DNA of 64,000 nucleotides from Bacilli bacterium. Lineage in GTDB: Bacteria > Bacillota_I > Bacilli_A > RF39 > UBA660. The stretch spans positions 44,141-108,140 of the forward strand of contig JAFZKH010000002.1 of the NCBI GenBank assembly GCA_017553685.1. Direction: 5' to 3'. Position 1 is the first letter of the stretch. Every line of letters starts with the position of its first letter. Position numbers and translations under genes: made by a program. The notes under the pieces were generated by a model. That model had not been told where the DNA came from. It worked only from the letters and a program-made list of their open reading frames with translations, and ran no database searches. Positions 18,063-64,000 of this stretch are shown one piece after another.

Positions 18063-18077
18063 AAAAGAAGGTTTGTT

Positions 18078-19166: not shown

Positions 19167-19174
19167 GAGGATAT

Positions 19175-20242: not shown

Positions 20243-20243
20243 G

Positions 20244-21584: not shown

Positions 21585-21602
21585 ATCTATAAAGGAGTAG
21601 AA

Positions 21603-39848: not shown

Positions 39849-41867
39849 ATGAAGAAAAGTGAAAACAAGTCTACAACTAAGACTAAAGCTAAAGCAGTTA
39901 AAGTAGAAAAAACTGAAGAAGTAAAAGAAGAAGTTGTAGAAAAAGTAAAAGTTGAAAAAGTTAAGACTAAAAAAGAATTCAAAATAACTAATAAACATAA
40001 AATAATTGCAGGATGCGTACTTGGTGCAGTTATTATTTTATGTTTATGTTTATTCTTATTTAGATCTAAAGTAGATACTATTACTAGAGTTAAAAAGATT
40101 GCTTCTGCTAAATATTATAGTGTTGAATGTTTAAACACTGAATGTGATTATATAGTAGCAGCTAAAGGCGATAAATTAGGTAAAATTAAAGTAGATATCT
40201 TTAATGCTAGTGGTAATAAAGTAGCTAAGTTTAAAGATAAATATTATAGTAAAAATACTTATCTATTAGATGTTAGTGATGTATCTAAAAACTATATTAT
40301 ATTTAAGAAAGTAGGTAAAACTACTAATAATGTAGAAGGATATACAATTGCTAATACTAAAGGTAAAGCTAAGTATTCTACTGGTAATAAGTTAACTAAG
40401 ATTAATAATAATTTAATCTCTGAAGTTGATACTAAAGATAACATGTATTATATACTTACTAGTAAAGGTAAAGTAATTTATGATGGAGTATCTAGTATAA
40501 ATGTATTTGCAAGTGGTAAAATTGTTGCTTTATCTATTAGAGGTAATAATATACTTATAAATGAAAATGGTGAAAATATTTTAAATGGTTATACTGTATC
40601 AAAAGATGTAGTAAATGCTAATGGAGAAACTCTTTATTTAGTTGTTTCTGATTCAAAAGGTAATGGATACTATTATTTTGATATTAATTCTAATAAGATT
40701 ATTGGGCAATCATTTAATGGATATACAGCATCTGAAAATGAAGGAGAATTAATTATAACTAGAAAAGATAATAATTCTACTTCAAAATATATTTTAAGTG
40801 CTAATGGTAAACAAGTTAAAATGGAAGATGAAACTGTAAGTGAAAGAGTATCAGACATTAAAGAAAAACTTGGTAGTGATTATGCATTATATGTTTCATC
40901 TGTTATTAAAGCAGATCAAAGATATGTATTTGTTAATAAAATAAAAGATTCATCATTTGGTATATATGATGTTAATAGTGGTAAATATACTAAACTATAT
41001 AATTATTCATCTGATTCAAAATCTACAACTATTTATGATTTAGAATCTAAAGGTGATACTGTTTATATGCAAGCAGAATGTTATCAAGGATATTGTGATA
41101 AAGATACACTATATGTATATGATTTAACTAATAATAAAGAATTATTTAAATCAGTAGGAGAAACTGGTGTACAAAAATATGCTGAGTATACTAATGGTTA
41201 TAAAGTAATTAGATATTCAAATAATGCTGAGAATGAAAAGTATCAAGGTAAATATGTTTTATTTGATAAGAAAAATAAAGAATTATTAGTGTCTCCTAAT
41301 ATTATTATTCCGGTTGGAGAAGATAATATTTTTGGAGAAGTAGTATCTTCTAAAGCATTAATTTTATATTCTACAAAAGATAAAAAAGCATTAAATAATG
41401 ATAATTATTTAGGAAGTAAGATTAATGTTAAGAGTAGTTATGTATATAAATTTTCTGATAAAGATAATACATATTTATATAGTAGTACTGGTAAAAAATT
41501 AGTATCTATTAAGACATCAGATGCTAAAATGATATATTCTGATGAGACTATAATTTATATTTTAAATGGAAAAGTAAATATAGTAGATCCTACTACTGGT
41601 AAAACTAAAAAATATAGATTAAAAGGTGAAGAAAGAATAAATGACTTATCAGGAGATACTATACCTCCATATAGAAATTCTTTATATGTTAATAATACTG
41701 CTAAAGACTATGTAAAAGTAGTTAATGTAAGAGGTAAAACTGTTAAGAAAATTAAAGGTGTAGAAATCAAAGAAGTTACTAAAAATGATAAGACAAATAA
41801 TGTAATTATTATTGTTAGAAAACTTGAAAAGAATAATAATACTTTTGGTTTATATATTGCTAAATAA
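39849..41867 (+). CDS. Type-II membrane-anchored surface protein with KE-rich N-terminus and beta-rich repeat ectodomain
   Basis: Charged N-terminus, one TM helix (IIAGCVLGAVIILCLCLFLF) and a repetitive beta-strand-rich extracellular region. No known catalytic motifs. Confidence 0.55.
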   Translation: MKKSENKSTTKTKAKAVKVEKTEEVKEEVVEKVKVEKVKTKKEFKITNKHKIIAGCVLGAVIILCLCLFLFRSKVDTITRVKKIASAKYYSVECLNTECDYIVAAKGDKLGKIKVDIFNASGNKVAKFKDKYYSKNTYLLDVSDVSKNYIIFKKVGKTTNNVEGYTIANTKGKAKYSTGNKLTKINNNLISEVDTKDNMYYILTSKGKVIYDGVSSINVFASGKIVALSIRGNNILINENGENILNGYTVSKDVVNANGETLYLVVSDSKGNGYYYFDINSNKIIGQSFNGYTASENEGELIITRKDNNSTSKYILSANGKQVKMEDETVSERVSDIKEKLGSDYALYVSSVIKADQRYVFVNKIKDSSFGIYDVNSGKYTKLYNYSSDSKSTTIYDLESKGDTVYMQAECYQGYCDKDTLYVYDLTNNKELFKSVGETGVQKYAEYTNGYKVIRYSNNAENEKYQGKYVLFDKKNKELLVSPNIIIPVGEDNIFGEVVSSKALILYSTKDKKALNNDNYLGSKINVKSSYVYKFSDKDNTYLYSSTGKKLVSIKTSDAKMIYSDETIIYILNGKVNIVDPTTGKTKKYRLKGEERINDLSGDTIPPYRNSLYVNNTAKDYVKVVNVRGKTVKKIKGVEIKEVTKNDKTNNVIIIVRKLEKNNNTFGLYIAK

Positions 41868-41884: not shown

Positions 41885-41912
41885 AAAAACTAGTATAAAA
41901 CTAGTTTTTTTT
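41885..41912 (+). terminator. Rho-independent terminator
   Basis: AACTAGT-ATAAA-ACTAGTT followed by T8. Confidence 0.5.
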
Positions 41913-41972
41913 ATGTTATAATTTTATTAGTATTGATAATAAAAATAGGGTATCAATTTGGAGGTATTTGTT

Positions 41973-44900
41973 ATGAAGAAGAAAAGAATAGGAAAAGTTA
42001 TAGCAGCATCGTTAATAGTAGTATTAGTAGCTGCTATTTTTGGCATTTTAAAGTTATCTAGTGTAGATAAATATAAAGGCTTAGTTACAATTAATAAAGC
42101 TAGTTTATCTAGTATATCTACTAAACTTAGTGCTAATATTAGTGATTTATCTGAAGATAACAATATTGAGGTAAAAGGATATGATGAGATAGATTATAAT
42201 ATTTCATACAAATTATCTGAAGTACCAGGAGAAAGAGATGTTATTATTAACGCTAAGATAAACGAAAATGATCAGTATGCTACTTTTAAAGAAGTAACTG
42301 GTACTGATATAACATCAGTTTTATCAGCAGATAGAAAAGAAATAACTATTACTCTTAAGAATCTTCCTTCTAATGAAGAAATTACTAGTAAAGTAACAAT
42401 GCTTATTGTAAATGCTCCAAAAGGATATACAGTAAGACCTTCAATTAGAATTAAAGAATCTACATCAGATGAATATACTACTGTAGCTGTTAGAGATGTA
42501 ACTGTTAATACATCAAGTGTACAAGGTACAGTAATTGATGAAGAAGGTAATAGAGTACCAAATATAATAATTGCCCTAAAGAAAAATAATCAAATTATCA
42601 AAGAGACTTATACAAATAGTGATGGTATATATACATTAAGTGATATTACTCCAGATACTTATTCAGTAGTAGTTAATGAAGAAAACTATGAAGATTTAGA
42701 ATTAAATAACTTATATATCAAAGATGGTAATCAACTTAATTTAATTGTTAAGAAAGTATTCCCATATAGAATTGAAACTAATAAATATATTACAAAAGTT
42801 GAATTAAATAACTTAGGATCTAAAAAAGATTATTTATATAACGATGTAAAACTTGCTAATATACCAGTTAGAAAAGTTAATAACTTACATGGTAAGATTT
42901 ATTATAAAATAACTGTTCAAAATACTGGAGAAAAAGCTGGTATTATTTCATCAGTTAAAGATGAATTACCAGAAGGATTAAGTTTTGATGAAAAATTAAA
43001 CTCTGGTTATGAACTTAAAAATGGAATTATTTATAATAGAAACCTAGAAGGTATAGAACTTAGTGCAGGAGAACAAATCTCTGATACATTAATTCTTACT
43101 ATTGAAAATACTGATGTTGCTAAAACATATATTAACAAAGTAAATGCAAGAGGAGAATTATATGAACATGTTATTTACTTACTAGATGGAAGAACATATA
43201 AAACATTAGATGTACTAGAAGGTGAAACAATTGATGAACCTACAGTAAGTGCACAAAACTTCTCTGGTTGGTATACAGATGAAACATTAACAAATAAATA
43301 TAAATTTGAATTACCTGTAGAAAAAGATTTAATTCTATATGGTGTAACTGCTAAGAAACATATTGTTAAATTTAATGATAAACATCCAGAAACATTAGTA
43401 GAAACTCCATATGATGAAAAAGAAGTTGACAATGGTGAACCAGTAACAAAACCTGCTACTGATCCTGAAAAAGAAGGATATGACTTCTGTGGATGGACTA
43501 AAGATGGTGTAGTATGGGATTTCCATACACCAGTAACAGAAGATTTAACATTAGTATCTAAATACTGTATTAAATCATATAAAGTTGAATTCTATGATAA
43601 GAGTGCTTCTAATGGAGCAGAATATGAAAAGATTGGAGACATCTCAAAAGAATATAAGAGTACTCTAAGTAATAGTGAAGCTCCTGATTTATCAAATGCT
43701 TGGATAGGACATAATTTCCTTAGATGGACAACTGATCAAGCAGGTGATACAGAATATAGCTTTAATACTCAAATTAAAGAAAATATTAAATTATATGCTC
43801 AATACTCATTACAAGATAGATCATTTATCTTTAATGATGAAAACAGAATAACAGAAAAATTTGTTAAATATGGTGAAACAGTTGAAGCTATCACTGATCA
43901 AGGTAAAGATGGACATTCATTTGTTCATTGGTCTTTAGAAGTAAATGGTCAAACACCATTTGACTTTAGTACTCCAATTTATCAAACAACAACAGTTTAT
44001 GCAGTATATCAAATTAATCAATATCATGTAATATTTAATGATACTGACCCATGGACAAATGTAACTGAACAATATGATGATCAAATAGTTAATCATGGTG
44101 GAAATGCTATTGAACCGGTAGAACCTCAAAAAGAAGGTCACACATTCTGTGGATGGAAATTAAATGGTAATGATTATAACTTTAGTACACAAGTAACTGA
44201 TAATATTACTTTAGATTCTTGTTATACAAAGAATAAAGTAAATGTTTACTTTATGAATGATACTGATATATGGGAAACAAAAGAAGTACCATATGCAGAT
44301 AAAGTAACAGCTCCATTAACTAGTCCAACTAAAGAACATAAGATATTCTCATATTGGTCAGAAGATGGAATAACACCATTTGATTATGATACTCAAATAA
44401 AAGAAGAAAAATATTTATATAGTGTATTTGAGGATATAACTCCTCCAATTATTGCTCATCAACCATTATATTGGACAAATGATAAAGTTCTAGTAACAAT
44501 TAGTCATGCAAGTCCTGTATTAACATTTAAATATAAAGTTGATGATGGTGCTTATGAAGATTATGCAGGAGCATTTGAATTATCAACTAATTCAACAATA
44601 GTTGCTAAATCATTATATGAAGATACTGAATCAGAAATTGTTTCACATGATGTAACAAATATCGATAAATTAAATCCAGAGATTGGTGATATAACATTTA
44701 CACCATCTCAAACAACAATTCTTATATCTGGAACAATGACTGATAATCAATCAGGTATTGCTCAAATAAGAGTTTATAGAGATAATACAACATCTGGAAC
44801 TATTAATGGTACAGTAATTGATGCTGATTTAAGAGATTATACAAAAACAAAAGATATGAATGTTGTTGTATCAGAATTAGAACCTGATACTGAATATACA

Positions 44901-47900
44901 TTTAGAATAGTAGTAACTGATGGAGCTGGTAATGAATCAGAACAAACAGTTACTGCATCAACATCTCCAGTTGAACCAATATGTCAAATTATTTCAGTTG
45001 ATGGTGTTGATTTAAATCCTGATGATTATATGCCATTCACATTATTAGAATATGCAATTGAAGATTCTCATTGTGATAATAAATGTACAATTCAAATGTT
45101 AAAAAGTACAAATGAATCTGTTGAAATTCTTAATACTCAAGATATTACATTAGATTTAAATGGTAAGACTGTAGCAGGTGTTCTTCCTGGATATACAGTT
45201 AATAACATGGGTGAATTTACATTAATAGATAATGGAACTTCAACTGGTGGATTAATTAATGGTAATGGTATAGCTGTTTACAATAACGAAAATGCTAAAT
45301 TTACTATGGGTGAGGGAAGTTCTGATCCTACTACTGATGGCCTTGGTAGAACAGTTTCTATCACTGCTCCATATGTATTTGGTGATTCATATGGTGTTTA
45401 TTCAGAACATGATGCTTTATTCTCATTCTTTGATGGTAAAGTTAGAGGTACAAATGCTATTCAAGGTGAAGTTAATGAAACAGAGTATTTATACAATGCA
45501 ACTTCATCTCAAGTGAATGATTATGAAGAAGTTATCTTAGCTATTCAAACTGAACCAGAAGCAAGAATTAATAAGAGTAAATATTATTCAAATATTAATG
45601 TTGCTACTGTAGATGCTAAAGGTGGTACTTCTGAAATTCAACAATCACAAGATTCGTTCTTAAGTGGATTTACACATGTAGATACTGATCCTATTATTAA
45701 TGTTGAACAAGTTAATCCAAATGGATTCCCATTTGTATATGATGCAGAAAACGATATATTAAAGTCTGGTAATCAATATTATGGTTCTATGGCATTCACT
45801 GAAACAATCATAGATTTAACTAATTATGCTGAAGATCAAGTGTTTGAAATAGAATATTATGTTAATCCTAATGTTGATGGTTCAAAAGGCAATTATAATA
45901 TTCAAGTATATCCAATAACTGATGATAATGTTATTTTATCATCTGCTGTATATACAATTTATAATAATGATAATTTAAGAGCATATAGATTAACAGCTGG
46001 TCGAAAATATAAAGTTTCAATTTCATATTTACAACCTGTTAGTCTTGTAAAGGCTGAATATACTGATAATGGATATGGTTTAGAAATTCTTCCATATTAT
46101 AATTCAATACCTGAATCAAGATTAGTTATTACAAGAGCTTCTCTTCACGTTGAAGAAAGAACTAAAACAGATGAAGAATTAATTGATGGAAATAATAAAG
46201 CAGTTGGATTCTATTATGATCCTACAACAGATACAATTAGATCAGATAGTCAATATGATAAGACCTCTGATTCTGCATATGCTTATGGTTATTATGAATT
46301 AGACTTAACTAATTATGAAGGCGAATATGAAATTAATTTAACAGCAAGTCTAGAAACATATGGTAATAGTTATGGATGTGCATATATTACAGAAGATAAC
46401 TATAATAACACAAAAGATTGTTATGCAAATTCTACTAATAAAATGCTTGTTAACTTCTATTCTTATTCTTCTTCATCATATGATACAGAACCTTATACAG
46501 GATATCCTTTAGGATACGATATAGTAGGTCCTTATACTGGTTATAGAACTCTTCAAGGTGGTAAGAAATATTATCTTAATTTAGTTTATTTAAAATATAA
46601 CTTAGAACGTAGACCTGAAAAAGAAGGCTTCATAGAAAATGATATAGCTGACCAATTTATAGTAAATAATATTAAGATTTATAAAACTGGTAATACGCAA
46701 GATATTGATATGGCTGCAGAAGTAAAAGGTACTGCTTTTGATTATGATAATCCATTTACATTTAATAATGTAGAATATTATGGACTACAACATTTTAATA
46801 ACAGTGATGTTAATGATTCATATATTAAAATAGACTTAACTGATGCTACAAGTGATAAGTTATTTGAGTTTGATAGATATGGTTCTACATATTATAACTA
46901 TTATTCAACTTATATAACTACAAATAATAGAGCTTTAACAGTTGATGAAGTTAAAACTAATAGAAGAGATTTAGCTCTAGTTAAAGACGATATATATGCA
47001 ACTGGTAATATATATCGTTATGATGATAATTCTTCATACTCTTATGGTGGAGGAACTAATAAGATTTATCTTGAAAAAGGAAATGTATATTATATTCACT
47101 TTAATGTAAGACTTGGTGCTTATGGTTATAGTTATCATAATGATGAGTATGATTGTAATTCAACAAGTGGATATTGTGGTGACATGATTAGTGGAATGAG
47201 ACTAAGAGACACAAGTAATACTATTCTAAATATGGGTAAATTACCAATAACTGTTGGTTCTGTTAATGTAGATAATTCTGAAGAAGAAAGTACTACAATT
47301 ACTCAATCTACAGGTGATGTAGTTAATCCAAACGGAATGATGACTGGTTCTTATGTCTGGGATTCCGATAGAAATATGTATGTATTAGCTCATCCTATTG
47401 AGTATTATCAAGCGGCAGGATGGACTGGTGAAATAGATTTAACAAATGAAACAGAGTCAAGTTTGTATCAATTCTTATATGAATATGATCCAACTGGTAA
47501 CTTATCTATATATGCATACTATACAGTTGATGAATTATATCCTATTAAATATACGAACTATGGTAGTGGTCCAGCATATCCAGAAGGATATAATTATATA
47601 AGTACAAATGGATATATAAATTTAGAGCCTGGACATAAATATTATTTATATGTAATGTCATATAGAAACTCGAGAAGTAATATTACGACAAATGCATTTA
47701 GGTTTGATAAAGTTGAGGGAGATAGAACAAAGGAATATACTAAGGGTGAAAAAGTAATCTCATTTAATGAAGATGTTGATGAAATTCAACTTCTTAAAAA
47801 TATTCAATTAAGTTCTACACTTGTATTTGATTATGATAAAGAAGTAGTATTAGACTTAAATGGATATAAGTTAACATCAAATTTAAATGGAGCTTTAATT

Positions 47901-50900
47901 AATAACTATGGTAAGTTAACAATTAAGGATAGTCATTATGAAAATCAAACTTCTGAAACTAAAACACATAGAGGTATTTTAGAAAGTACAGCAGGAAATA
48001 TTATTAAAAATAATATAGATGCTGAGTTGATAATAAAGAATGTTAGAATTAACATTGATACTAAAAGTAGATATGGTATCGAAAACTATGGTAATGTTAA
48101 ATTTGCAGATGGTTATGATTCTAAGATTTATGTTAATGCTCTTAGAGCATATGGTATTTATAATTATAGTAGTGGTAGAATTGATGATACTTCTGATTCA
48201 ATTGAAATTGTAATGAATTATCGTAATCAAGCTGAATTACCTTATAGTAGTTTATATAAGAGTTTATATGATAGTAATCAAATTAGTTATTATTCAAGTT
48301 ATATAAATACTGGTATTTATAATAGCGGTTATTATAATGCTTCTGGAATGAAAATCTCTGGTAAGCATGGTACTGGTTTTGATAATCAATCATCAGGTAC
48401 TGCTGTTATTAAGACTTCTAATATATCTGTAGATATTAATACATATGATAAGAGACTTCATGATGAGTATAGTGATTATAACTATAGATATGTTTATACA
48501 TCAAGATATGGTACTGATTATTATGCGACAATAACAGATTATTCTATAAAAAATGCTGGTACTATGACATTAATGAATGGTACAAATGTGGGAACTAGAA
48601 CATATAATACTGGTCAATTATTTGTTACTAATAGTTCTACACTTGACTATTTAGATAATGAGAATAAACTTGTTGCAAATAATTGGGCAGAAATGAGTAA
48701 TCTTTTAAATAAGAATTCAACTATTTTCTTTGATGTTTCATATGGTGTAACTAATCAAATAGATAACTATGGTGATTTACAACTTAGAAACTATTCTGCT
48801 ACTAGTTCAACTATTAATAATTATAGTGAACTTACAGGTGATTCCCTAAATCTAGGTACTATTAATAACGAAGGTAATATGAGATTTGTTAATGGTTCTT
48901 CAAAGTATGTTAATAATGCGGGAACAGCAAGAGCAGAAAACTTTAGTGTAATAGCTGATCCTGATGTTCATTCAGAAAATATAAAAAATAGTGGTATTTT
49001 AAATCTTACACAAAACTGTACTATTGGTGATTCAAGTAATCCTACTACATATGGAATACTAATGGTTCCAGCAGGAGGAGGAGCTCAATCTAACCCATAT
49101 AAACAAGTTGAATTAAATATGGGTATAGAAGGTACTACTAATAGTCCAAATATATATGTATATGGTAAGAATACAGGTATAGCAGGTAATTGTTATAGAA
49201 CTAAGAAAAATCCGGTTTATTCAATAACAGGTACTGGATCAAATGAACGTGTAAATGCTTCTGTTGGAGATTATTTCCAATATTTAAATGGCGATATCGA
49301 AGTATTAGATCAATCAAATTATGATCAAGATTTATGTGTATTTAATATGTATAATGGATATGTAACTTCAATAGATAATCCAAATACTCCTGTTAAAGCA
49401 GTAAGTATTCCAATTAATAATACATTAGATAATGAATATACATATTTTGGTGGAGGTTTAAGATTATTTGATAAAGATCAAGCTATTTCTACAAATTATA
49501 CTTCAAACGTTGTTAAGATAGGAAATACTGATTATATTTCTCTTCAAGATGCTGTTGATAGTATAACAACAGATACACCTACAACAATTGATATACTATG
49601 GTATACAGATGTGTCTAGTGTTGTAATTCCAGAAGGAAGAAATATAACACTTAACTTTACTCAAGATCATAATTCATTTGTATATGCTAGAGATGGTGGT
49701 ATTATCAATTATGGAAATTTAACAGTACAAGGTGCTGGTAAGTTAATAAATATTGGTAAATATGCATTTATCAACTATGGAACTATTACATTTGCTGGTG
49801 GTGATTATTTAGATAACTGGCAATATACTAGAATGGAACGTTCATTATTAAAGAACTATGGAACTGCAATTGTTAATGATGGTAGTATTTCTGGTCTAGA
49901 CTTAAATAACTTTGGTGAATTAACTATTAATAATGGTTCATTAAAAGGCACTATGGTTTATGGAACTGGAACTGATTCATTAACAACTATTAAGGGTGGA
50001 TACTTCTATGGTACATCTTCAGAAACTATTGATACATATCATGGATTTAAGACTGAAGTTAAGGAATATAAAACTAACCTTAGTTGGAGACATATGATTG
50101 AATTAAATCAAGGTGCAACAGCTGTCATTGATGGTTTAAATACTGAAACAGATACAAGATATACATATGTAAGACCTATTGCGCATCTTGATAATTCAAC
50201 ACTTATTTTTAAGAATAGTGTAATTAAAGAATTATCTAGTGAATATAATCCTATTAGATATATTTCTGCTGAATATAATTCTAATGTTATATTTGAAAGT
50301 GGTACTTATGAAAATATTTATATAGATGATAATGCATCTAAAGTTACTGTAACTGGTGGTAGCTTATCTGCTTATTCAAATGAGGATGTCAACTATAACC
50401 TAATGTTTTTACATGGTTCAACACCTAAAGCAGAAGTAACTGGCGGTGAATTGTATTCTAAGAAACGTGCTATTGGTTTATCTGATTTCACAAATGGTTA
50501 TGAAATTGTAATTGGTACAAAAGGTGACAAAGATGAAAATGATGAACTAATTGTATCTAAAACAAGTCCAAGTATAACTGGAGATATATATTCAGTTGCT
50601 AAATATGGTTCTGGTTCAGGTGTTGGTTATACAGGATTCTTTGATGGAATTTTAAAAGGTAGTACAGCAGCATCTGATATTAACTTTGATGAAATTGAAG
50701 ATGACTTTGAAATCATTGATGATACTGAAACATCTAAATTTACTAAGTATCTTGATCAAAAAGATCTAGTATATAACTCAACAACTGGAGTAACTTATAA
50801 ATCATTCCAAAAAGCATTTAGTGAAGCTACAAATGGTGATCAATTAGAGACTCTTAGAACTTATACAAATACTAAGACTACAGCAACAATTGTTATCCCA

Positions 50901-53900
50901 GAAACATCTAACTTTACATTACATATTAAACACGAAATAACTGTTAATAATGATACATTTATTGTAAATAATGGTACCGCAGAGTTTATTAGTTATCCTA
51001 CAACTGTAACTAATAATGTTTCTCATGAAGGTAGAATTAGTGTTAATGTAGCTAGTAAAGTGTTTGTTAATAATGGTACTTTAACATTAAAAGTTAACAT
51101 GGACGATTTAAAATCTGATGGAACAAATAGAGAAGTTATTTTAAATGAAGAAGGTGCAACATTAAATGTTGACCGTTCTAACATTACATCAGTTCAACGT
51201 GTAATTCTTAATAATGCTGGTACATTAAATATGAATGTAGGTGGTACTGAAAGTAATCATACTTCAACAATATTTACAATGGTATATGTTCCTGGTGATT
51301 CTTCATCAGTAGACTATGCTTTAGTAAATACTGGTACTGCAAATATTAATTACTTTACTTTAGATTCTCAATATATTAGACCAATTTTATTCAATTCAGG
51401 AAGAATGGTTGTTGATCATTCATTATTTAATCAAACTGGTTCAATAATTAATGTTGCTGCTACTCAAAGTGGATTAGAGTCTCCTGTATATAACTATAAT
51501 TACTTAGAAATTAAGAATAGTAATTTATATTATGTTCCTTCTAAAATTAATTATGATAGTATATATATGTATTTATATACCATTACAGGTTATTACTTTA
51601 GTAGTAGTCCAGAAAATACTTTAGGTAATAATGAAAATGCTACATTAATTCTAGATAATAACAGCATGGATACATCTGTTTTAGGTTTAGTTTACCAAGA
51701 TGGTTACATTAGATCTTATGGTTATCAAAATGATATTCATTATGCATTATTAAAAACTGTTCCTAACCAAGTTATAGTTAAGAATTCTGAATTACATAAT
51801 ATGGCTGGTGTTGTTCAAGCTAGAGGTTATGTAGATATCCAATTTATAGATAATACATTTAATATAAGAGATTTCTTTATTCAATCATTTAGTAAACGTG
51901 AATCATATAGAAATTATTATGATAATCGTGTATTAACAATTTATGCTCCACAACTAAAAGAAAGTGATGGTGCTAGTGAAAGTGTTGATATTAGATCTAA
52001 CGTTCTAATTGATGGTGGTACATATAATACTAATGCTTATATATATGTTGATAGAGATTATACAGCATTAACTAATGAAACATTAACGATAACTACACAA
52101 TCATACATGTTCCATATTTCACCATTAGAAATTAACTGTCCAACAGTTATAAGGGATGCTACAATTAATGTTTCTCCTTTAGCAAGTAAATCAAATCATC
52201 AATCTTATTACTCAGAATATGATGCAATATTTGAAGAATATATTAAAAAGATTGAAGGAAGACCTTCTTCATATCAAAATATGATTTACACAACAAGTAC
52301 ATGGAATTGGCTTGGTGCTGTTACAACATTCCAACCAGTAACAGTTATTAATTCTGAAATTAGTGTAACTGATGCTGATAGTGAAATGCCTGCTATTAAA
52401 GGTTATAGTGAAAATGCAATTATAACAATCGGAGAAAAAGATGGTAATTATAATGAAAGTTCTCCTAGATTATTCTCACAAAAGACTGGATATCCAGTAA
52501 GCTTCTATAGAAATCTTGGAGGTGTAAACTTCTATGATGGTGTTATTGAAACAGGAGCTAGTTATGGTATTCTTGTATATAATGAAATGGAAGATTTAGA
52601 TAAACATTTCTTAGATAAAGAAACTGATTATATTATTACTGGTACAAGTAAAAAGAGATATCTATCAAGAGAAAGCATTATTAAGAATGTTACTCAAGAT
52701 ATAGAATATAGTGATATTAATCAAGCATTTAATAGTGCTAATTCTGGTGATGAATTAGAAGTATTAGTTAATTATGTACCTACAGGTATTGAAACTTATA
52801 CAATTAATAGTAAAGAATTTACACTTGATCTAAAAGGTTTACTATTCACAGTTAATTTAGAGGTATCTAATGCAAGTGATATTTCAATTGTAGATACTAT
52901 TGGTGGTGGTAAAGTTTCAAGTGCTAAAGTTTATGACACATCAGAATTATCTATAAATAATAATTCTATTAATATTGATGGATACAATTCTTCGATAATT
53001 AATATTGCTCGTGAGAGTAAATGCACTATAAATATGCATGATAATTCAGTTTTAAATTTTGAAAATACTATTGTACCTAATGCACAAAATATAAACGCAA
53101 ATGTAAATACAGCTGCATTTATGTATGATGATTCTTCAATAAATATAACAGATAGTAAAATAGCTAGAGTAGAATTAAATGATAATTCAACATATGCATC
53201 AACTTGTACAACAGATGCTGATTTATATGTAGCTACATTTGATAATAATTCGACTGAAACAATAGAAATTTCTTGTGGTAGATATGGTGCTGGTACTAAT
53301 AACGGAAGTGTACATATTATAGGTGGTAAATACGGTGATTATAGTTCAATAGATAACTATGGTACAACAGTTTTTGATGGTGGTGGAACACACAGTATTT
53401 ATAACAGAGATGTTGGTATTGTAACAATAAATGATGGTACATTCTATAGAGTAAATAATGTTGGTCAAATGACTGTTAATGGTAGTAACATTACTGAATT
53501 ACGTGGTGGGGGAATATTAAATATTACAGGCGGTTATATTAAAGATATGATTAATGGTAGTACAACTACAATGACAGGTGGTACTATTGGAAAATATATT
53601 CATTCTGGAACATTTAATTTACTTGGTGGTAAACTTGGTATGCTTACTACTCAAACTGGTACTATTAATATTGGTGTTAAAGATGGCATTATAAATAGTG
53701 AAGAACCTGAAATTAATACTGAATATTACTATAGTGAAACACCATATACTGGATTAAGTATTCATGATGGAACTATACTTAACTTCTATGATGGATTTGT
53801 TATTGGAGCATCATCACCAGGAGCTATCACTGGTAAGATTAGTGATACTGAACCTGGTTATAAGATTGGTGTTGTAGATATAGGTGATGGTAAAGAAAAA

Positions 53901-54701
53901 GCTTACTTAACACCAATTACATATGATGATTCACTAGTAGCTATGGTTAATGGTATTAACTATAACTCATTACAACAAGCTGTTAATAAATCAGTTCAAA
54001 ACTGTACTTCTGGATCTACTTGTCCAAAAGTAACAATATTCTTAAATATTGAGTTAGATGCTGATTTAACAATTGCTAGTGGATATTCAGTAGATATTAA
54101 CTCTAATGGATTTAGTATTAGTACTAACGGATTTAATGTTGATCCTCATATTACTTTAGATGGAGCTGCTATAGAAGATGATACTCTTGGTGGTAATATC
54201 TTAAATAGTTTAAGAGGAATGCTTGGTTTTGATGAAACTGGTACTTCAGTATTAGTTTATGAAATGGCTGATGGTTCAGCATTAAGTTCAGAAAATCATT
54301 ATAGATTATATGAATATAATGGTAGTGACTATGACTTAGTTACTATGGAAAAAGGCGATGAAGTTGCTAGATATAATCCTGGTAAGGGAGTAACTAATAT
54401 GAAACCTATAAAAGGAAGATTATATTTAACAAACTTAGACCCTGGAAACTATAAAGTTTCTGATGATAATGGTAGTGAAGTAACATTTACTATTAATGAT
54501 GATGGAACTTTAAGTGGACATGTTAAAGAATATATTCCAAGTAATAATAAAATAGAATCAACTGGTGAAGCAAAATTACTAATTTCTATTCAAACTGGAA
54601 TAAGAAAAATTAACTATATGTTAATAGCAATTTCATTAATTGCAGTTTTATCTGTAATGTTTGTCTTAAAAAGAAAAAGTCAAAATAAAAATCTAGTTTA
54701 A
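41973..54701 (+). CDS. Giant (about 4,240 aa) cell-surface protein with signal peptide, CarboxypepD_reg/Cna-B-like domain, six or more Listeria-Bacteroides repeats, an Fn3-like domain, four tandem roughly 180-aa modules, a long parallel beta-helix region, and a C-terminal sorting-signal-like anchor
   Basis: Single uninterrupted ORF; the TGGAGG SD precedes the ATG at 41973. Domain motifs were read directly from the translation: GWYTDETL.../FCGWTKDG... repeats; repeated NYG/LDLNG beta-helix rungs; and a tail of IQTG, then a hydrophobic stretch, then KRKSQNK. Confidence 0.8.
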   Translation: MKKKRIGKVIAASLIVVLVAAIFGILKLSSVDKYKGLVTINKASLSSISTKLSANISDLSEDNNIEVKGYDEIDYNISYKLSEVPGERDVIINAKINENDQYATFKEVTGTDITSVLSADRKEITITLKNLPSNEEITSKVTMLIVNAPKGYTVRPSIRIKESTSDEYTTVAVRDVTVNTSSVQGTVIDEEGNRVPNIIIALKKNNQIIKETYTNSDGIYTLSDITPDTYSVVVNEENYEDLELNNLYIKDGNQLNLIVKKVFPYRIETNKYITKVELNNLGSKKDYLYNDVKLANIPVRKVNNLHGKIYYKITVQNTGEKAGIISSVKDELPEGLSFDEKLNSGYELKNGIIYNRNLEGIELSAGEQISDTLILTIENTDVAKTYINKVNARGELYEHVIYLLDGRTYKTLDVLEGETIDEPTVSAQNFSGWYTDETLTNKYKFELPVEKDLILYGVTAKKHIVKFNDKHPETLVETPYDEKEVDNGEPVTKPATDPEKEGYDFCGWTKDGVVWDFHTPVTEDLTLVSKYCIKSYKVEFYDKSASNGAEYEKIGDISKEYKSTLSNSEAPDLSNAWIGHNFLRWTTDQAGDTEYSFNTQIKENIKLYAQYSLQDRSFIFNDENRITEKFVKYGETVEAITDQGKDGHSFVHWSLEVNGQTPFDFSTPIYQTTTVYAVYQINQYHVIFNDTDPWTNVTEQYDDQIVNHGGNAIEPVEPQKEGHTFCGWKLNGNDYNFSTQVTDNITLDSCYTKNKVNVYFMNDTDIWETKEVPYADKVTAPLTSPTKEHKIFSYWSEDGITPFDYDTQIKEEKYLYSVFEDITPPIIAHQPLYWTNDKVLVTISHASPVLTFKYKVDDGAYEDYAGAFELSTNSTIVAKSLYEDTESEIVSHDVTNIDKLNPEIGDITFTPSQTTILISGTMTDNQSGIAQIRVYRDNTTSGTINGTVIDADLRDYTKTKDMNVVVSELEPDTEYTFRIVVTDGAGNESEQTVTASTSPVEPICQIISVDGVDLNPDDYMPFTLLEYAIEDSHCDNKCTIQMLKSTNESVEILNTQDITLDLNGKTVAGVLPGYTVNNMGEFTLIDNGTSTGGLINGNGIAVYNNENAKFTMGEGSSDPTTDGLGRTVSITAPYVFGDSYGVYSEHDALFSFFDGKVRGTNAIQGEVNETEYLYNATSSQVNDYEEVILAIQTEPEARINKSKYYSNINVATVDAKGGTSEIQQSQDSFLSGFTHVDTDPIINVEQVNPNGFPFVYDAENDILKSGNQYYGSMAFTETIIDLTNYAEDQVFEIEYYVNPNVDGSKGNYNIQVYPITDDNVILSSAVYTIYNNDNLRAYRLTAGRKYKVSISYLQPVSLVKAEYTDNGYGLEILPYYNSIPESRLVITRASLHVEERTKTDEELIDGNNKAVGFYYDPTTDTIRSDSQYDKTSDSAYAYGYYELDLTNYEGEYEINLTASLETYGNSYGCAYITEDNYNNTKDCYANSTNKMLVNFYSYSSSSYDTEPYTGYPLGYDIVGPYTGYRTLQGGKKYYLNLVYLKYNLERRPEKEGFIENDIADQFIVNNIKIYKTGNTQDIDMAAEVKGTAFDYDNPFTFNNVEYYGLQHFNNSDVNDSYIKIDLTDATSDKLFEFDRYGSTYYNYYSTYITTNNRALTVDEVKTNRRDLALVKDDIYATGNIYRYDDNSSYSYGGGTNKIYLEKGNVYYIHFNVRLGAYGYSYHNDEYDCNSTSGYCGDMISGMRLRDTSNTILNMGKLPITVGSVNVDNSEEESTTITQSTGDVVNPNGMMTGSYVWDSDRNMYVLAHPIEYYQAAGWTGEIDLTNETESSLYQFLYEYDPTGNLSIYAYYTVDELYPIKYTNYGSGPAYPEGYNYISTNGYINLEPGHKYYLYVMSYRNSRSNITTNAFRFDKVEGDRTKEYTKGEKVISFNEDVDEIQLLKNIQLSSTLVFDYDKEVVLDLNGYKLTSNLNGALINNYGKLTIKDSHYENQTSETKTHRGILESTAGNIIKNNIDAELIIKNVRINIDTKSRYGIENYGNVKFADGYDSKIYVNALRAYGIYNYSSGRIDDTSDSIEIVMNYRNQAELPYSSLYKSLYDSNQISYYSSYINTGIYNSGYYNASGMKISGKHGTGFDNQSSGTAVIKTSNISVDINTYDKRLHDEYSDYNYRYVYTSRYGTDYYATITDYSIKNAGTMTLMNGTNVGTRTYNTGQLFVTNSSTLDYLDNENKLVANNWAEMSNLLNKNSTIFFDVSYGVTNQIDNYGDLQLRNYSATSSTINNYSELTGDSLNLGTINNEGNMRFVNGSSKYVNNAGTARAENFSVIADPDVHSENIKNSGILNLTQNCTIGDSSNPTTYGILMVPAGGGAQSNPYKQVELNMGIEGTTNSPNIYVYGKNTGIAGNCYRTKKNPVYSITGTGSNERVNASVGDYFQYLNGDIEVLDQSNYDQDLCVFNMYNGYVTSIDNPNTPVKAVSIPINNTLDNEYTYFGGGLRLFDKDQAISTNYTSNVVKIGNTDYISLQDAVDSITTDTPTTIDILWYTDVSSVVIPEGRNITLNFTQDHNSFVYARDGGIINYGNLTVQGAGKLINIGKYAFINYGTITFAGGDYLDNWQYTRMERSLLKNYGTAIVNDGSISGLDLNNFGELTINNGSLKGTMVYGTGTDSLTTIKGGYFYGTSSETIDTYHGFKTEVKEYKTNLSWRHMIELNQGATAVIDGLNTETDTRYTYVRPIAHLDNSTLIFKNSVIKELSSEYNPIRYISAEYNSNVIFESGTYENIYIDDNASKVTVTGGSLSAYSNEDVNYNLMFLHGSTPKAEVTGGELYSKKRAIGLSDFTNGYEIVIGTKGDKDENDELIVSKTSPSITGDIYSVAKYGSGSGVGYTGFFDGILKGSTAASDINFDEIEDDFEIIDDTETSKFTKYLDQKDLVYNSTTGVTYKSFQKAFSEATNGDQLETLRTYTNTKTTATIVIPETSNFTLHIKHEITVNNDTFIVNNGTAEFISYPTTVTNNVSHEGRISVNVASKVFVNNGTLTLKVNMDDLKSDGTNREVILNEEGATLNVDRSNITSVQRVILNNAGTLNMNVGGTESNHTSTIFTMVYVPGDSSSVDYALVNTGTANINYFTLDSQYIRPILFNSGRMVVDHSLFNQTGSIINVAATQSGLESPVYNYNYLEIKNSNLYYVPSKINYDSIYMYLYTITGYYFSSSPENTLGNNENATLILDNNSMDTSVLGLVYQDGYIRSYGYQNDIHYALLKTVPNQVIVKNSELHNMAGVVQARGYVDIQFIDNTFNIRDFFIQSFSKRESYRNYYDNRVLTIYAPQLKESDGASESVDIRSNVLIDGGTYNTNAYIYVDRDYTALTNETLTITTQSYMFHISPLEINCPTVIRDATINVSPLASKSNHQSYYSEYDAIFEEYIKKIEGRPSSYQNMIYTTSTWNWLGAVTTFQPVTVINSEISVTDADSEMPAIKGYSENAIITIGEKDGNYNESSPRLFSQKTGYPVSFYRNLGGVNFYDGVIETGASYGILVYNEMEDLDKHFLDKETDYIITGTSKKRYLSRESIIKNVTQDIEYSDINQAFNSANSGDELEVLVNYVPTGIETYTINSKEFTLDLKGLLFTVNLEVSNASDISIVDTIGGGKVSSAKVYDTSELSINNNSINIDGYNSSIINIARESKCTINMHDNSVLNFENTIVPNAQNINANVNTAAFMYDDSSINITDSKIARVELNDNSTYASTCTTDADLYVATFDNNSTETIEISCGRYGAGTNNGSVHIIGGKYGDYSSIDNYGTTVFDGGGTHSIYNRDVGIVTINDGTFYRVNNVGQMTVNGSNITELRGGGILNITGGYIKDMINGSTTTMTGGTIGKYIHSGTFNLLGGKLGMLTTQTGTINIGVKDGIINSEEPEINTEYYYSETPYTGLSIHDGTILNFYDGFVIGASSPGAITGKISDTEPGYKIGVVDIGDGKEKAYLTPITYDDSLVAMVNGINYNSLQQAVNKSVQNCTSGSTCPKVTIFLNIELDADLTIASGYSVDINSNGFSISTNGFNVDPHITLDGAAIEDDTLGGNILNSLRGMLGFDETGTSVLVYEMADGSALSSENHYRLYEYNGSDYDLVTMEKGDEVARYNPGKGVTNMKPIKGRLYLTNLDPGNYKVSDDNGSEVTFTINDDGTLSGHVKEYIPSNNKIESTGEAKLLISIQTGIRKINYMLIAISLIAVLSVMFVLKRKSQNKNLV

Positions 54702-54758
54702 TAACTAGATTTTTATTTGCAAATAAAGTATAATAAAGTTTATAGGATGGTGATAATC

Positions 54759-61112: not shown

Positions 61113-61158
61113 TATAATTTTATTATAGTGTAATAGTATAGGAAGGTAGGGTATTTTA

Positions 61159-64000
61159 TGAAAAAAACAAAGAAAAATAAGTATATACCATTTAAGAAAA
61201 CTATAATACCAGTATTATCAATTTTAATGATAATTGTAGCTATATTAATAATTGTTTATACATTAGATTATATGAAATTTAAAAAGGATCATGTGGAATA
61301 TAAAAACGAATATATGATTCACGTTATGTACTTAATTATGGATAAAGATGAAGTACCAGAAAATATAACAATGGATCAAACATTTAGTTATGATCCTGAA
61401 ATAGGTATTCAAGGAATTTTAGGTACATCAAACTCTATGGTTCCACTTACTAAAAAGGGTGATTATTTATATGTAGATTTAGATACATTTACTAATCCAA
61501 ATTTATTAGTTAATGAAACTGATTACGTATTTACTAAATATAGTTTAGATGGTGAATTAATTGATGGTTGTGAATACGATAAAGAAACTAATACTATTAA
61601 AGTACCAATTTCATACTTTAAAGAAAATAAAATACATCCTATACAATTAGAAATTCAAACATTAATGACAGAAGAAGATTTCCAAAATATGGAAACTGTA
61701 GTTAATGTTAAAAAATTTATTACTACTAAAACTATTATTAAAAATAATGCTGTAGTACAAGAAACTAGTATTAAATTAACAGGTTTTGGTTCAAAGAAAC
61801 TTAATAAAGATAATGTACATATTTATATGAATAATATGGAAGAAGAACTAGATGATAATATGTATAAAATTGTTGGTAATGAAATAAGAATCTTATTTCC
61901 ACCAGCACAAATTAGTAAACTAGATATTAAAGTAGATTATTCATTAAAAGGTGTATTTGCTAGGGAATATGAAAGCAATCCTAATGAGTTTGTTGCTATT
62001 CAAGTAGATGGACCTATTAATTTACATTTAAATGATACAGGTAGTTTTTCATTATCTGGTCCAGAATCTGGATCTAAAGAGATTAAATACTGCGGTGTAT
62101 ATTCAAATGATAACTGTTTATCAGATAATTCATGGAGCCCATCAGCAGCTAGTTGGACTTATACATATTCTGCATATCCTTCAAGCTATTATAGATTTGA
62201 TTCATCTTCATGGGATGTATTATATAACTTTAGTGTATATCTTGATTCATTAGTTAGTAAAACAGCATCTGGTATAGCATCTACATCAGATATGCCATCT
62301 CGTATAGCATTCTATTGCTTAAACCATAGTTATGGTTCAGGTAATAATGGTGCTCAAACAATGTATATGTCTTATAAAGTAATTGGAGAAACAAGTCACT
62401 CTGTTACAATTCATTATTGGACTACAAATGCATATAGATCTCAAGATGCACAAGCATATTTAAGATTTGAATGGGAAAATGCAGAAGTTGGTTTAAAAGT
62501 TAGAAAAGTAGATGACTCTGGTAATAATATTCAAGGACTTAGTATAACTGCTGTTAATATGGCAAATGCATCAGATACACAAACTGCTATTACTGATGCA
62601 AGTGGTATAGCAACATTCTCAAATTTAACTGATGGTGCTAAATATAAGTTCTATGAAGATTGTAATTCATCTATTACTGTTGCAGGTCATTCTAATACAA
62701 CATTAGCTGCTCAAGGAATATCTTGTGTATATCCATCAACTAATCCATTAAATAATGGTGGTTCTGGTTATACTCCAACAGAAGATTATGCTACAATGAC
62801 TCCTATATCAATGGAAAATATTAAATATAGACACTGTGTAACTGTTCATAAAACAAAAGGAACAGATAATAGAAATGAATCTGGTGTACAATTTCAATTA
62901 AGTGTACCTGCTGGAGTATGTAGTTTATATAATTCAGCATATACATCAGGTGCAGTATCTACTAATTCAAATGGTATAGTAACATTTACTCATTTAGGAT
63001 ATTGTAGCGGTAATGCTACAGTTAGAGTAACAGATACAACTCATGCAGCATCTGTTATTGGAGATAATCCTAGAACAGTAAGTTTTGTTAGATCTCAAAT
63101 TAAGTCTAAAGTAAATGGATTTAATTATAGAGGTGTAACTTATAATGCTGGTGATGAAATACCTGCAATGACAAATAGTGATTTTATTACTAATGAATCT
63201 GCAGGAAGAGTAGAGGAAATATGTCCTACTACTAATCAAGTAGAAGTTAGAGATAAAGATTATGTAGTTATGTGGACTAAGAAAGATATGTCTATTAATA
63301 ATGGACAATCATTAAGTAATGTTACATTTAATGTAAATCTTGGTAATACTCCTGTTAGAGTATTAACTACTAAAGAAAATTATACTGATACAAATAACGT
63401 AACAAAATTATGTTATAAATATACAACTGAAACTGGTAATAATACTACAATAGATTTAAAATCTGATGGTAATGGTGAAGTATGTATCTTCAATTTACCA
63501 AAAGCAGGTGATAATTATACAGTTACTGAAAAATCAACTAATGTATATTCACATAATCCAATAACAGTAACATCATCTGAAAACTATACAAATACTAATT
63601 ATTCAAACTATGAATATATAGTTGATTGGAATAAGAAAGAATTAACTGGTATTTCTACTTCTAATTCTGGTGGTAACTTAGCAGGTGCTAAATTTACTGT
63701 TAAAGATTCAAGAGGTAATACAGTTAGAACTAAAGCTACTAAAGAAACTAGATATGATAATAGAACTCCTGGAGTATCTAGATCATGTTATGTAGTAGAT
63801 TTAATTAATGCGTCTAATAACACTAATTCGGAATTTATATCTGATAGTGATGGTTATGTATGTATTGTAGGTGTTAATAAATCTGAAAACTATACTATTA
63901 CAGAAACTGATCCTGCTACTTATTATGGATATGCTAATAGTAGATCTATAACAGAAGAATCTAAATTAACATTTAATACTACTAATCCTAATCCAAAAAT
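61159..64000 (+). CDS. Large surface protein with N-terminal signal anchor and repeated Cna-B/SpaA-like (prealbumin-fold) domains; 3' partial, runs off the window
   Basis: By direct translation the frame is open from the ATG at 61159 to the window end. The ORF track omits it because there is no in-window stop. It contains repeated GLKVRKVDDSGNNIQGL...TDASGIATFSNLTDGAKYKFYE-type domains. The AGGAAGGTAGGG SD precedes the start. Confidence 0.7.

Follow-up and report, generated by a model that had tools for sequence, protein, structure and literature searches.

Sorting signals determine which proteins Gram-positive cells display, and they are used for surface-proteome prediction. In the LPXTG layout, a Thr-Gly pair located 17 to 45 residues from the C terminus is followed by a hydrophobic segment and a basic tail. 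Dedicated (class B or C) sortases usually adjoin the genes of their substrates. The published pentapeptide nearest to the one described below is NVQTG of Clostridioides difficile CbpA (CD3145) (PMC4155245, PMC4371152). NVQTG is not an established sortase motif, because SrtB, the only sortase of C. difficile, did not cleave it in vitro in two studies (PMC4155245, PMC4371152; see also PMC5569036). Adhesins that combine a thioester domain (TED) with SpaA domains are described as sortase anchored in other bacteria (PMC6194298). Further points of comparison are the giant InlB B-repeat surface proteins of Firmicutes, the chlamydial Pmp proteins, and the beta-helix adhesins, among them the autotransporter passengers Vag8, pertactin, UpaB, and Ag43 and the Gram-positive wall-anchored PfbA.

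We analyzed a 64,000-nt stretch of DNA (the window), which contains a gene for a giant surface protein (Table 1). The best explanation of the whole, to which we give a probability of about 0.5, is that it encodes an exported fibril or adhesin of great length on the cell surface of an uncultured low-GC Bacilli lineage from the gut and that the C-terminal signal of this protein is processed by a sortase. The 12.7-kb single open reading frame of the earlier note proved correct: the frame is unbroken from 41958 to 54701, the true start is the ATG at 41973, preceded by GGAGG, and the identical product was called on seven independent metagenome contigs. The hairpin upstream of the gene is approximately a copy of the one at its 3' end, and a single copy is found at the junction in a relative that lacks the giant gene (L005). 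A consensus terminator scan did not flag the upstream hairpin because its stem has too few G-C pairs, and consensus scans for promoters and terminators gave no information in the AT-rich DNA of the window. NCBI names the orthologue MBR4351253.1 only "InlB B-repeat-containing protein."

Table 1. Features of the giant gene and its surroundings (positions in the window)
Feature	Position	Strand	Evidence or remark
AT-rich hairpin and T-run, 3' of the upstream 672-aa gene	41887..41912	+	Read from sequence
Ribosome-binding site GGAGG	41960..41964	+	8 nt upstream of ATG
Giant surface-protein gene	41973..54701	+	4,242 aa plus TAA at 54699-54701
Putative N-terminal export signal, aa 1-31	41973..42065	+	Read by eye from translation
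CarboxypepD_reg (prealbumin-like), PF13620, aa 182-257	42516..42743	+	Pfam above cut-off
DUF11, aa 299-394	42867..43154	+	Pfam 24.8 bits vs 24.6; weak TIGR01451 match
Six Listeria-Bacteroides (Flg_new / InlB B-repeat) repeats, ~aa 425-870	43245..44582	+	Pfam, self-BLAST
Fn3-like domain, aa 906-994	44688..44954	+	Pfam score equal to cut-off
Short beta-helix-like segment, aa 1005-1224	44985..45644	+	BLAST, motif scan
Four tandem homologous modules, 170-180 aa each	45645..47717	+	Motifs, 12-sequence alignment
Predicted beta-helix region, ~2,145 aa, aa 1916-4060	47718..54152	+	
Conserved C-terminal beta domain, aa 4095-4197	54255..54563	+	Fold predicted with low confidence
Candidate C-terminal sorting/anchor signal (EAKLLI-SIQTG, IRKINY, TM helix, KRKSQNKNLV)	54564..54698	+	Sequence; common to unrelated proteins
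Hairpin and T-run overlapping the stop codon of the giant gene	54690..54714	+	Read from sequence
SpaA/CnaB adhesin start, 1,788 aa, runs off the window	61158..64000	+	Full gene in L003 11825-17191

The N terminus (MKKKRIGK, with its KKKR, then a hydrophobic core of 18 to 20 aa, then KLSS) was judged by eye to be a putative secretion signal. CarboxypepD_reg scored 42.6 bits when the whole protein was searched and 48.9 bits for the segment (cut-off, 32.3), and Flg_new (PF09479) matched six stretches with 134 bits (cut-off, 27; E = 2e-39); TIGR02543 added 34.1 bits, and the repeats detected by self-BLAST spanned aa 418 to 836. The secretion signal, the carboxypeptidase-regulatory domain, and the six or more Listeria-Bacteroides repeats reported in the earlier note were thus recovered, the first as a putative feature; the DUF11 domain was absent from its list. 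For the Fn3-like domain, fn3 (PF00041) reached 25.0 bits on the segment, at the cut-off of 25, and, when the whole protein was searched, 17.4 bits; several Ig-like families had similar scores, and Pur_ac_phosph_N had 26.5 bits. These profile matches show a predicted N-terminal stalk made of common Gram-positive surface modules, namely, the prealbumin-like domain, DUF11, six Flg_new repeats, and the candidate Fn3 domain. The six Flg_new repeats are a likeness to the InlB B-repeat giants of Firmicutes, from which the protein differs in that the repeats cover only about 10% of its length and the rest has no family assignment.

A segment of about 220 aa that lies ahead of the modules had been overlooked in the earlier reading. 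It contains ITLDLNG at aa 1060, and its residues 1040 to 1086 are 37% identical to aa 1938 to 1986 (BLAST; E = 4e-4), a likeness in sequence to the beginning of the main beta-helix. The four tandem modules that follow, proposed earlier at roughly 180 aa each, are delimited at aa 1225 to 1395, 1396 to 1575, 1576 to 1745, and 1746 to 1915. A motif scan located [IL]DLT[ND] at aa 1281, 1444, 1621, and 1822 and G-x-[KV]Y at aa 1343, 1529, 1703, and 1887, that is, each motif four times, and D-L and Y were invariant in a 12-sequence alignment. AlphaFold modelled module 4 as a beta-sandwich (pLDDT, 65 to 83); Foldseek returned short, weak matches for this model (E = 0.04 to 0.3; phiX174 G, HA1, CBM27, MAM, and GOLD), and a PDB profile search with the four modules produced nothing above noise (for instance, HA2 at E > 0.1). 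The modelling shows a predicted jelly-roll, carbohydrate-binding module (CBM)-like beta-sandwich fold for the four modules.

Beyond the modules lies a region with cap-like Y-x-S-L-Q-x-A motifs (aa 2521, 2942, and 3997) and internal duplications, which is hypervariable between relatives. In the models, rungs of three strands each stack as a right-handed solenoid that resembles solved structures of this fold, and the modelled part of this ~2,100-aa region is thereby shown as a predicted right-handed parallel beta-helix. The long pectate-lyase-like helix described in the earlier note stands for that part, within a region of about 2,145 aa. A model of aa 3640 to 4242 (three-row alignment) had a pLDDT of 51 and did not resolve the C-terminal domain; Foldseek found no significant match for it, yet beta-helices were enriched. 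Pfam assigned no family to aa 1000 to 4100 in a search of nine segments at E <= 5, and Beta_helix, NosD, Pectate_lyase_3, Pertactin, and Chlam_PMP did not match the giant protein; its homologue P0020 scored slightly under the cut-offs (Beta_helix, 24.2 versus 25.9; NosD, 23.0 versus 23.6). A PDB sequence search with the whole protein returned nothing useful.

The likeness to chlamydial Pmp or autotransporter architecture that the earlier note drew did not hold beyond the predicted beta-helical, passenger-like region. The repeated Pmp-defining motifs GGA(I/L/V) and FxxN occur once and seven times, respectively, in 2,146 aa, and there is no autotransporter domain; we rejected Pmp membership on these counts and on the lack of a PF02415 match. 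PF03797 did not match either, and the C terminus is a single transmembrane (TM) helix. Unlike the beta-helix autotransporter passengers, the giant protein has no beta-barrel translocator and belongs to an organism with a predicted Gram-positive-type envelope, as deduced from its genes for a PASTA kinase, LtaS, and a TagF-like enzyme. Its helix would also be 5 to 10 times longer than those of Vag8, pertactin, UpaB, Ag43, and PfbA, with caps and insertions breaking its continuity.

Between genomes that are 89 to 96% identical, the middle part of the protein is only 27 to 50% identical, and identity in the first 600 and the last 240 aa does not depart from the background. This is a clear case, at the level of sequence, of a conserved putative anchor and stalk carrying a hypervariable predicted beta-helix between near-identical genomes, and it suggests strong diversifying pressure on the surface of a commensal. 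The exposed and fast-evolving part formed by the beta-helix and the jelly-roll modules would bind targets, probably glycans, and evolve under such pressure. That the beta-helix part is instead a displayed enzyme (polysaccharide lyase, hydrolase, or depolymerase) and not a passive adhesin seems unlikely to us. This alternative bears only on function, whatever the mode of anchoring.

The domain that precedes the C-terminal signal (aa 4095 to 4197) is 94% identical to that of the orthologue and is possibly CnaB/SdrD-B-like; SdrD_B reached only E = 0.047, AlphaFold gave a pLDDT of about 30, and there was neither an HMM match nor a confident fold of CnaB/SpaA type. The signal itself has the layout that the earlier note described, with corrected numbering: SIQTG occupies aa 4205 to 4209 (nt 54585 to 54599), the hydrophobic stretch aa 4215 to 4232, and the basic tail the remaining residues. 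The pair T4208-G4209, with 33 residues after G, is thus placed as in LPXTG signals and is likewise followed by a helix and a Lys/Arg tail; the putative N-terminal export signal is a further likeness. The pentapeptide, S-I-Q-T-G, lacks the proline that sortase motifs of the form L/S/N/P-P-x-T-G have at the second position. The curated LPXTG model TIGR01167 (cut-off, 15.9 bits) scored 16.4 on the isolated 52-aa tail and 13.0 on the last 150 aa and was unreported for the whole protein; it aligned only from the T onwards (profile positions 4 to 33), and across tails of this type its scores lay around the cut-off (15.2 to 17.4 bits). TIGR03063 (cut-off, 18.15 bits) matched neither the tail of the giant protein nor any of six related tails at E <= 10, and among the curated C-terminal sorting models none but this borderline LPXTG model matched the tail.

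We then looked for the same tail on other proteins. The non-homologous SpaA/CnaB adhesin encoded 6.4 kb downstream ends in ...SASAELVVNIQTGKKVIKYGLIITGILGLIGLLIFIRKRVSK, a tail of the same type in which AELVVNIQTGKKVIKY (NIQTG motif) is followed by a TM segment and RKRVSK. Copies in relatives end in TIQTG or NIQTG and in one case in NVQTG (L083), and distant beta-helix homologues, which HMMER retrieved independently of the tail, end in MIQTG, TIQTG, TLQTG, or VFGTG with the same flanks. A degenerate DNA pattern of the motif had 74 matches in JGI metagenomes, 65 of which lay 30 to 60 codons before a stop and had a TM stretch and then a basic tail after them, none of these features being imposed by the pattern. 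T was found in 39/39 unique tails and G in 38/39, and the proline position was occupied by I in 36 and by V, L, or P in one each. The consensus is A-E-L-[IV]-[IV]-x-I-Q-T-G-x5-Y (more broadly, A-[EK]-L-h-h-x-I-Q-T-G), then the TM helix and the basic tail, and tail-type stretches that are candidate sortase substrates include AELIINIQTGKK and AELIINIQTGKKV. The carriers belong to two unrelated superfamilies, the beta-helix giants and the SpaA/CnaB/thioester adhesins, the latter including proteins with a TED and four SpaA domains (Pfam TED, 31.9 bits; SpaA, E = 1e-33 to 1e-38). A tail-profile search of 5.8 billion proteins (201 word-index candidates) returned two fragments, and a search with the C-terminal 330 aa returned only four close relatives, of which two look chimeric. 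The lineage with this tail is present in human-gut and rumen assemblies. The earlier note had set as a refuting condition that no other protein shares the xQTG ending, and this does not hold: the neighbor and the at least 65 metagenome tails indicate a shared sorting-type signal and not an accident; by its recurrent sequence and predicted layout, the A-E-L-h-h-x-I-Q-T-G tail is a lineage-wide sorting signal.

The tail departs from LPXTG signals in several respects. It has I (rarely V, L, or P) at the proline position, about eight extra conserved residues upstream (A-E-L-h-h) and a conserved x5-Y downstream, Lys/Arg after the G where canonical signals have Asp/Glu, and a hydrophobic AELIIxI stretch ahead of the motif, which sortase signals do not have. 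The basic residues and the preceding hydrophobic strand, being atypical of sortase signals, count in favor of a plain C-terminal membrane anchor, that is, an exported type I membrane protein held by its TM helix, with AELIIxIQTG-x5-Y as an uncleaved juxtamembrane motif of structural or oligomerization function. The borderline LPXTG score and the failure of SrtB to use CbpA NVQTG agree with such an anchor, which we regard as a serious rival, if less likely than not. It does not explain the invariant T-G, the fixed distance from the helix, the occurrence in two unrelated superfamilies, or the presence of the tail on TED/CnaB adhesins that are wall linked elsewhere (PMC6194298). Nor does it explain why the tail stands where homologues have proline-containing motifs: a homologue of the SpaA neighbor has G-P-R-T-G at the aligned position, within the same flanks, and in one beta-helix homologue the C terminus is a canonical NPSTG tail (Rumino_NPXTG, 29.6 bits). 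Conservation of the TM segment matches that of the rest of the anchor, which could favor membrane retention; between the window and L006, however, this conservation equals the genome background of 89 to 96%, so we rejected it as special evidence for retention.

A phmmer search with Staphylococcus aureus SrtA and SrtB, combined with a TLxTC scan, covered the window, about 17 kb of additional flanking sequence, and 87 loci with tail-bearing genes (861 kb in total) and found no sortase homologue. Of the earlier note's proposal of a dedicated sortase, the shared xQTG tail stands, and a cognate sortase was not found in this sequence around such genes. The same contig carries one canonical signal, SPKTGD followed by a TM segment and KKFK, which hints that a sortase exists. 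The lack of a sortase nearby fits the plain anchor and also a non-sortase C-terminal processing signal read by a lineage-specific enzyme, following the logic of exosortase/PEP-CTERM, rhombosortase/GlyGly-CTERM, and archaeosortase/PGF-CTERM. The tripartite layout is common to all these systems, the conserved motif of about 18 residues would suit one of them, and LPXTG is the only curated sorting model that even borders on a match. We nevertheless consider this very unlikely, as T-G is the sortase scissile pair, PxTG variants occupy the same place in homologues, and no candidate enzyme was seen at the loci. The only conserved neighbor is a 219-aa TM protein found after SpaA-type genes; it was rejected as a processing enzyme, since it lacks conserved Cys and His residues, matched no family, and does not occur beside the giant gene.

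We found no relevant literature on SIQTG, NIQTG, TIQTG, or IQTG tails. With class B signals (NPQTN, NPKTG) and CbpA they share N, S, or T, then an aliphatic residue or P, then Q-T-G; the L083 tail is exactly NVQTG, and CbpA is also a CnaB-type adhesin. The CbpA flanks differ (VGQNVQTGDQSN...; PMC4155245, Table 1), and the CbpA tail matches TIGR03063 (19.5 bits), which the IQTG tails do not. The tail might also be the recognition signal of a separate sorting pathway, served by a new sortase specificity class or by a non-sortase enzyme, a reading that we find doubtful; its logic could also explain why CbpA NVQTG is not cut by SrtB. Such a pathway would be the main display route for the large adhesins of the lineage, beside a conventional (S/P)PxTG sortase.

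Weighing these readings, we consider the tail most likely a proline-less sortase-type signal, an apparently undescribed variant. We propose that the protein is exported via Sec and held in the membrane by its C-terminal helix and basic tail, and that a common trans-acting enzyme recognizes the shared motif. Most likely, this enzyme would be a transpeptidase of the sortase family, cleaving the T-G bond and attaching the protein to peptidoglycan; on this view, the tail would be a form of the LPXTG/NPQTN-type cell wall sorting signal that lacks proline.

The IQTG signal escapes surface-proteome prediction, as the LPXTG model scores it no higher than about threshold, and the NCBI name of the orthologue refers only to the repeat. 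It sits on the largest adhesins of the lineage, thioester-domain proteins included, and thioester-domain proteins bind their targets covalently. If the signal is processed by a sortase, the known specificity of these enzymes would be widened to a proline-less motif with extended flanks, which would be relevant to sortase engineering and to the anchoring of C. difficile CbpA (NVQTG). If it is not, the tail would mark a new anchoring route.

An ORF scan of the window (GC content of ~25%) confirmed, with small corrections, the single ORF described in the earlier note. The giant gene has one open frame, starts at an ATG preceded 8 nt upstream by GGAGG, and ends at a TAA; 7 independent metagenome contigs, including one of 318.9 kb, gave the identical 4,242-aa product on gene calling. 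The gene lies in a conserved housekeeping neighborhood. The 672-aa protein directly 5' of it, Lys-rich at its N terminus and with a single TM helix, matched no Pfam family at E ≤ 0.05; a relative without the giant gene (locus L005) keeps it, yet at only 67% identity against a background of 87 to 91%. Two adjoining acidic proteins between dnaI and thrS, both ending in YKL and neither with a Pfam family, look like paralogs.

Coordinates of the features (window positions unless a locus or aa is given)
Feature	Position	Remarks
Pfam matches	~2010-13785	Bac_transf, epimerase, LtaS (7856-9919), DUF4422, GT2 glycosyltransferase, Wzy_C, TagF-like Glyphos_transf; precomputed Pfam
Fic/RhuM gene	5779-6717	within envelope polysaccharide cluster region
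672-aa protein	39849-41867	
5' neighbors of giant gene		RlmN, PP2C phosphatase, PASTA Ser/Thr kinase, RsgA, Rpe, 672-aa membrane protein
5' hairpin	41887-41912	
Open frame of giant gene	41958-54701 (+)	GGAGG 41960-41964; ATG 41973
3' hairpin	54690-54714	
3' neighbors of giant gene		DnaB/DnaD-like, DnaI, two genes without Pfam family, ThrRS
Acidic proteins	56976-58061; 58071-59084	361 and 337 aa
Neighboring adhesin	from 61158, leaving window at 64000	full gene L003 11825-17191
CarboxypepD_reg	aa 182-257	above cutoff (Pfam/NCBIfam)
DUF11	aa 299-394	at threshold (Pfam/NCBIfam)
Six Flg_new repeats	aa ~425-870	E 2e-39 (Pfam/NCBIfam)
Fn3-like	aa 906-994	at threshold (Pfam/NCBIfam)
219-aa protein	L003 17202-17861; L005 15988-16659; L006 21655-22323; L012 5902-6558	about 20 further loci
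W-repeat TM protein	L012 368-916	about 9 other loci

The giant protein ends in ...ESTGEAKLLISIQTGIRKINYMLIAISLIAVLSVMFVLKRKSQNKNLV, and other proteins with xQTG, a TM helix, and a basic tail, which the earlier note had left to be searched for, were found. The neighboring adhesin, a 1,788-aa SpaA/CnaB protein, has the same type of tail, ...SASAELVVNIQTGKKVIKYGLIITGILGLIGLLIFIRKRVSK (AELVVNIQTGKKVIKY followed by a TM helix and RKRVSK); its orthologs and paralogs end in TIQTG, NIQTG, and once IQTC, and a 37% identical homolog has AEFIIGPRTGTTVIKYG at the aligned position. Distant beta-helix homologs, found without use of the tail, end in AELIIMIQTGIEKVNY, AELIITIQTGIIKGRY, STLILTLQTGTIRY, and ATLILVFGTGILKAHY, and one beta-helix homolog has a canonical NPSTG tail. 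We then ran the back-translated pattern A-[EK]-L-h-h-x-I-Q-T-G-x5-Y over the JGI metagenome collection. Among 74 matches, 65 were located 30 to 60 codons before a stop and had a hydrophobic stretch plus a basic tail after them, neither of which was part of the search pattern. Nearly all were on contigs of 23 to 29% GC, several from assemblies labeled human gut. The carriers belong to two superfamilies, beta-helix giants and SpaA/CnaB adhesins, the latter including ~880-aa proteins that combine a thioester domain with four SpaA domains. Across 39 unique tails, the T is invariant, the G is found in 38/39, and the free positions of the pattern are biased too (N/S/T before IQTG; K/Q/I, x, V/R/K, I/V, and K/N/R after it). 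As a C-terminal sorting signal, the tail is real and lineage-wide; we put at about 0.85 the probability that it is, in one way or another, a shared signal for sorting or anchoring.

The IQTC variant occurs in a rumen MAG relative (L006), which has two tandem paralogs of the neighboring adhesin; the second (15466 to 21651) carries it in an otherwise identical tail, either as a sequencing error or as a natural test of the importance of the Gly. Another SpaA-type protein of the lineage (L083, 723 to 6887, minus strand) ends in AELVINVQTGKKVIKY, with exactly the NVQTG pentapeptide of Clostridioides difficile CbpA.

That unrelated exported proteins carry a signal fixed in both position and sequence points to a common factor that would read it on all of them. 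We propose that this factor would be a sortase-family enzyme and the tail a cell wall sorting signal without proline, based on its T-G pair and its tripartite layout and spacing (33 residues after the G in the giant protein), on the PxTG variants that homologs show in the corresponding place, and on the types of carriers. The T-G pair and layout are common to LPXTG signals, whereas the proline is not, and the thioester and SpaA architecture has been described as sortase anchored in Bacillus anthracis and other Gram-positive bacteria (PMC6194298). The curated LPXTG model TIGR01167 scored 15.2 to 17.4 bits on isolated tails (cutoff, 15.9) and 13.0 bits in context, with an alignment beginning only at the T, and a class-B sortase-signal model did not match the tails. 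Apart from this borderline LPXTG match, the tail is covered by none of the curated models tested here, and the literature searched does not mention it. We regard it as a novel variation on the sortase-type signal and give even odds to its processing by a sortase-family enzyme.

A 1,044-aa ORF on the same contig (L007, 1001 to 4135), ~4 to 7 kb upstream of window position 1, contains the canonical sorting signal VSPKTGDNILLIMLLFVLAGLALYAFLFKKFK (19.8 bits on TIGR01167), which suggests that the organism has a conventional sortase. The signal lies mid-ORF (residues ~203 to 236); after it come another TM helix and ~800 aa of repeats rich in Gly and Asn. A second sample (L009) shows the same ORF, which is either a two-gene fusion or a protein designed for splitting by sortase.

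Dedicated sortases usually adjoin their substrates, and a search of the window, of ~17 kb of additional flanking sequence, and of 861 kb of loci surrounding genes with such tails turned up no sortase homolog. To our knowledge, known sortase signals have no counterpart to the hydrophobic AELIIxI strand before the motif or to the basic residues after the G. The nearest published pentapeptide, the NVQTG of CbpA, was once proposed as a sortase motif but was not cleaved by the single sortase of C. difficile in two independent in vitro studies (PMC4155245, PMC4371152; summarized in PMC5569036); its flanks are unlike those of the tails here (PMC4155245, Table 1). These three points speak against a sortase, and so two rival readings keep some weight: the tail may be an uncleaved membrane anchor, which we regard as rather unlikely, or the signal of a non-sortase processing system, which seems improbable.

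The organism has Gram-positive envelope genes, encoding a PASTA kinase, LtaS, a TagF-like glycerophosphotransferase, and Wzy (Pfam). A large envelope polysaccharide and teichoic acid cluster spans ~4800 to 34000, and Pfam annotation covers only ~2010 to 13785. Directly 3' of SpaA-type tail-bearing genes, there is always a conserved 219-aa protein with an N-terminal TM helix and the ending KI(S/T)WSYD(Y/F)E; it lacks conserved Cys and His residues, belongs to no Pfam family, and does not accompany the giant gene. Often upstream of such genes is a 138- to 193-aa TM protein without a significant Pfam match, whose W-containing repeats (YYRTYT..W..WSKNG) we take to resemble ChW repeats.

The giant protein is a new representative of known kinds of surface protein. 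No Pfam/NCBIfam family matched aa 1000 to 4100 at E ≤ 5. Motif scans and a 12-sequence alignment bore out the four tandem modules of the earlier note, as homologous units of 170 to 180 aa between aa 1225 and 1915 sharing GF-YD, IDLTN, and G-x-x-YY; the 220-aa segment before them has an ITLDLNG region resembling the start of the later helix. AlphaFold, with orthologs in the alignment, modeled aa 1715 to 2330 at a pLDDT of 70.7, with module 4 as a beta-sandwich whose weak Foldseek neighbors are jelly-rolls (phiX174 G, HA1, CBM27, MAM, GOLD). The model of aa 3640 to 4242 was poor (pLDDT of 51), with short-strand beta structure to ~aa 3980, a last domain without resolved fold, a TM helix at aa 4212 to 4237, and no significant Foldseek match. 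Beyond the modeled part, we assign the rest of aa 1916 to 4060 to a putative beta-helix class from three indirect lines: internal duplications (aa 2550 to 3111 and 2842 to 3711), recurrent cap-like Y-x-S-L-Q-x-A motifs, and a homolog scoring near threshold for Beta_helix and NosD; one unbroken 2,200-aa helix is likewise putative. The suggested likeness to chlamydial Pmp did not hold, as Pmp motifs are absent.

Scanning species-representative genomes with the neighboring adhesin yielded two syntenic loci, both annotated "MAG: Bacilli bacterium": L006 (RGIG6846, sheep rumen) and L005 (RGIG5658, sheep duodenum), with housekeeping protein identities to the window of 89 to 96% and 87 to 91%, respectively. 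L006 has the giant gene, whose product NCBI lists as MBR4351253.1, "InlB B-repeat-containing protein." In L005, the 12.8-kb giant gene is absent and a 665-aa gene runs straight on to dnaB. Two similar AT-rich hairpins bracket the giant gene, the 3' one including its terminal codons, for NLV, and its stop, and the L005 junction (~3480 to 3510) has one copy. The arrangement resembles an indel at a terminator. Present in one relative and missing from another, the giant gene is a strain-variable accessory gene.

With aa 1915 to 3114 as the query, HMMER run in full over 1.84 billion representatives retrieved no more than 32 proteins at E ≤ 1e-3; P0009 (51.5% identity) and P0010 (44.5%) among them are full-length collinear homologs. 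In two other database proteins (P0003 and P0004), the C-terminal domain and tail of the giant protein are fused to something foreign, once an HTH regulator and once a GC-rich reading frame; these are probably assembly or gene-calling chimeras. Identity to P0009 is 79 to 96% over aa 1 to 600 and 81 to 98% over aa 4000 to 4242 but only 27 to 50% over aa 1300 to 3900 (window ~45870 to 53670), the N-terminal 600 and C-terminal 240 aa being at the genome background of 89 to 96%. The exposed part thus diversifies or is swapped much faster than the stalk and anchor, which would mean that the center of the protein is under diversifying selection or cassette exchange.
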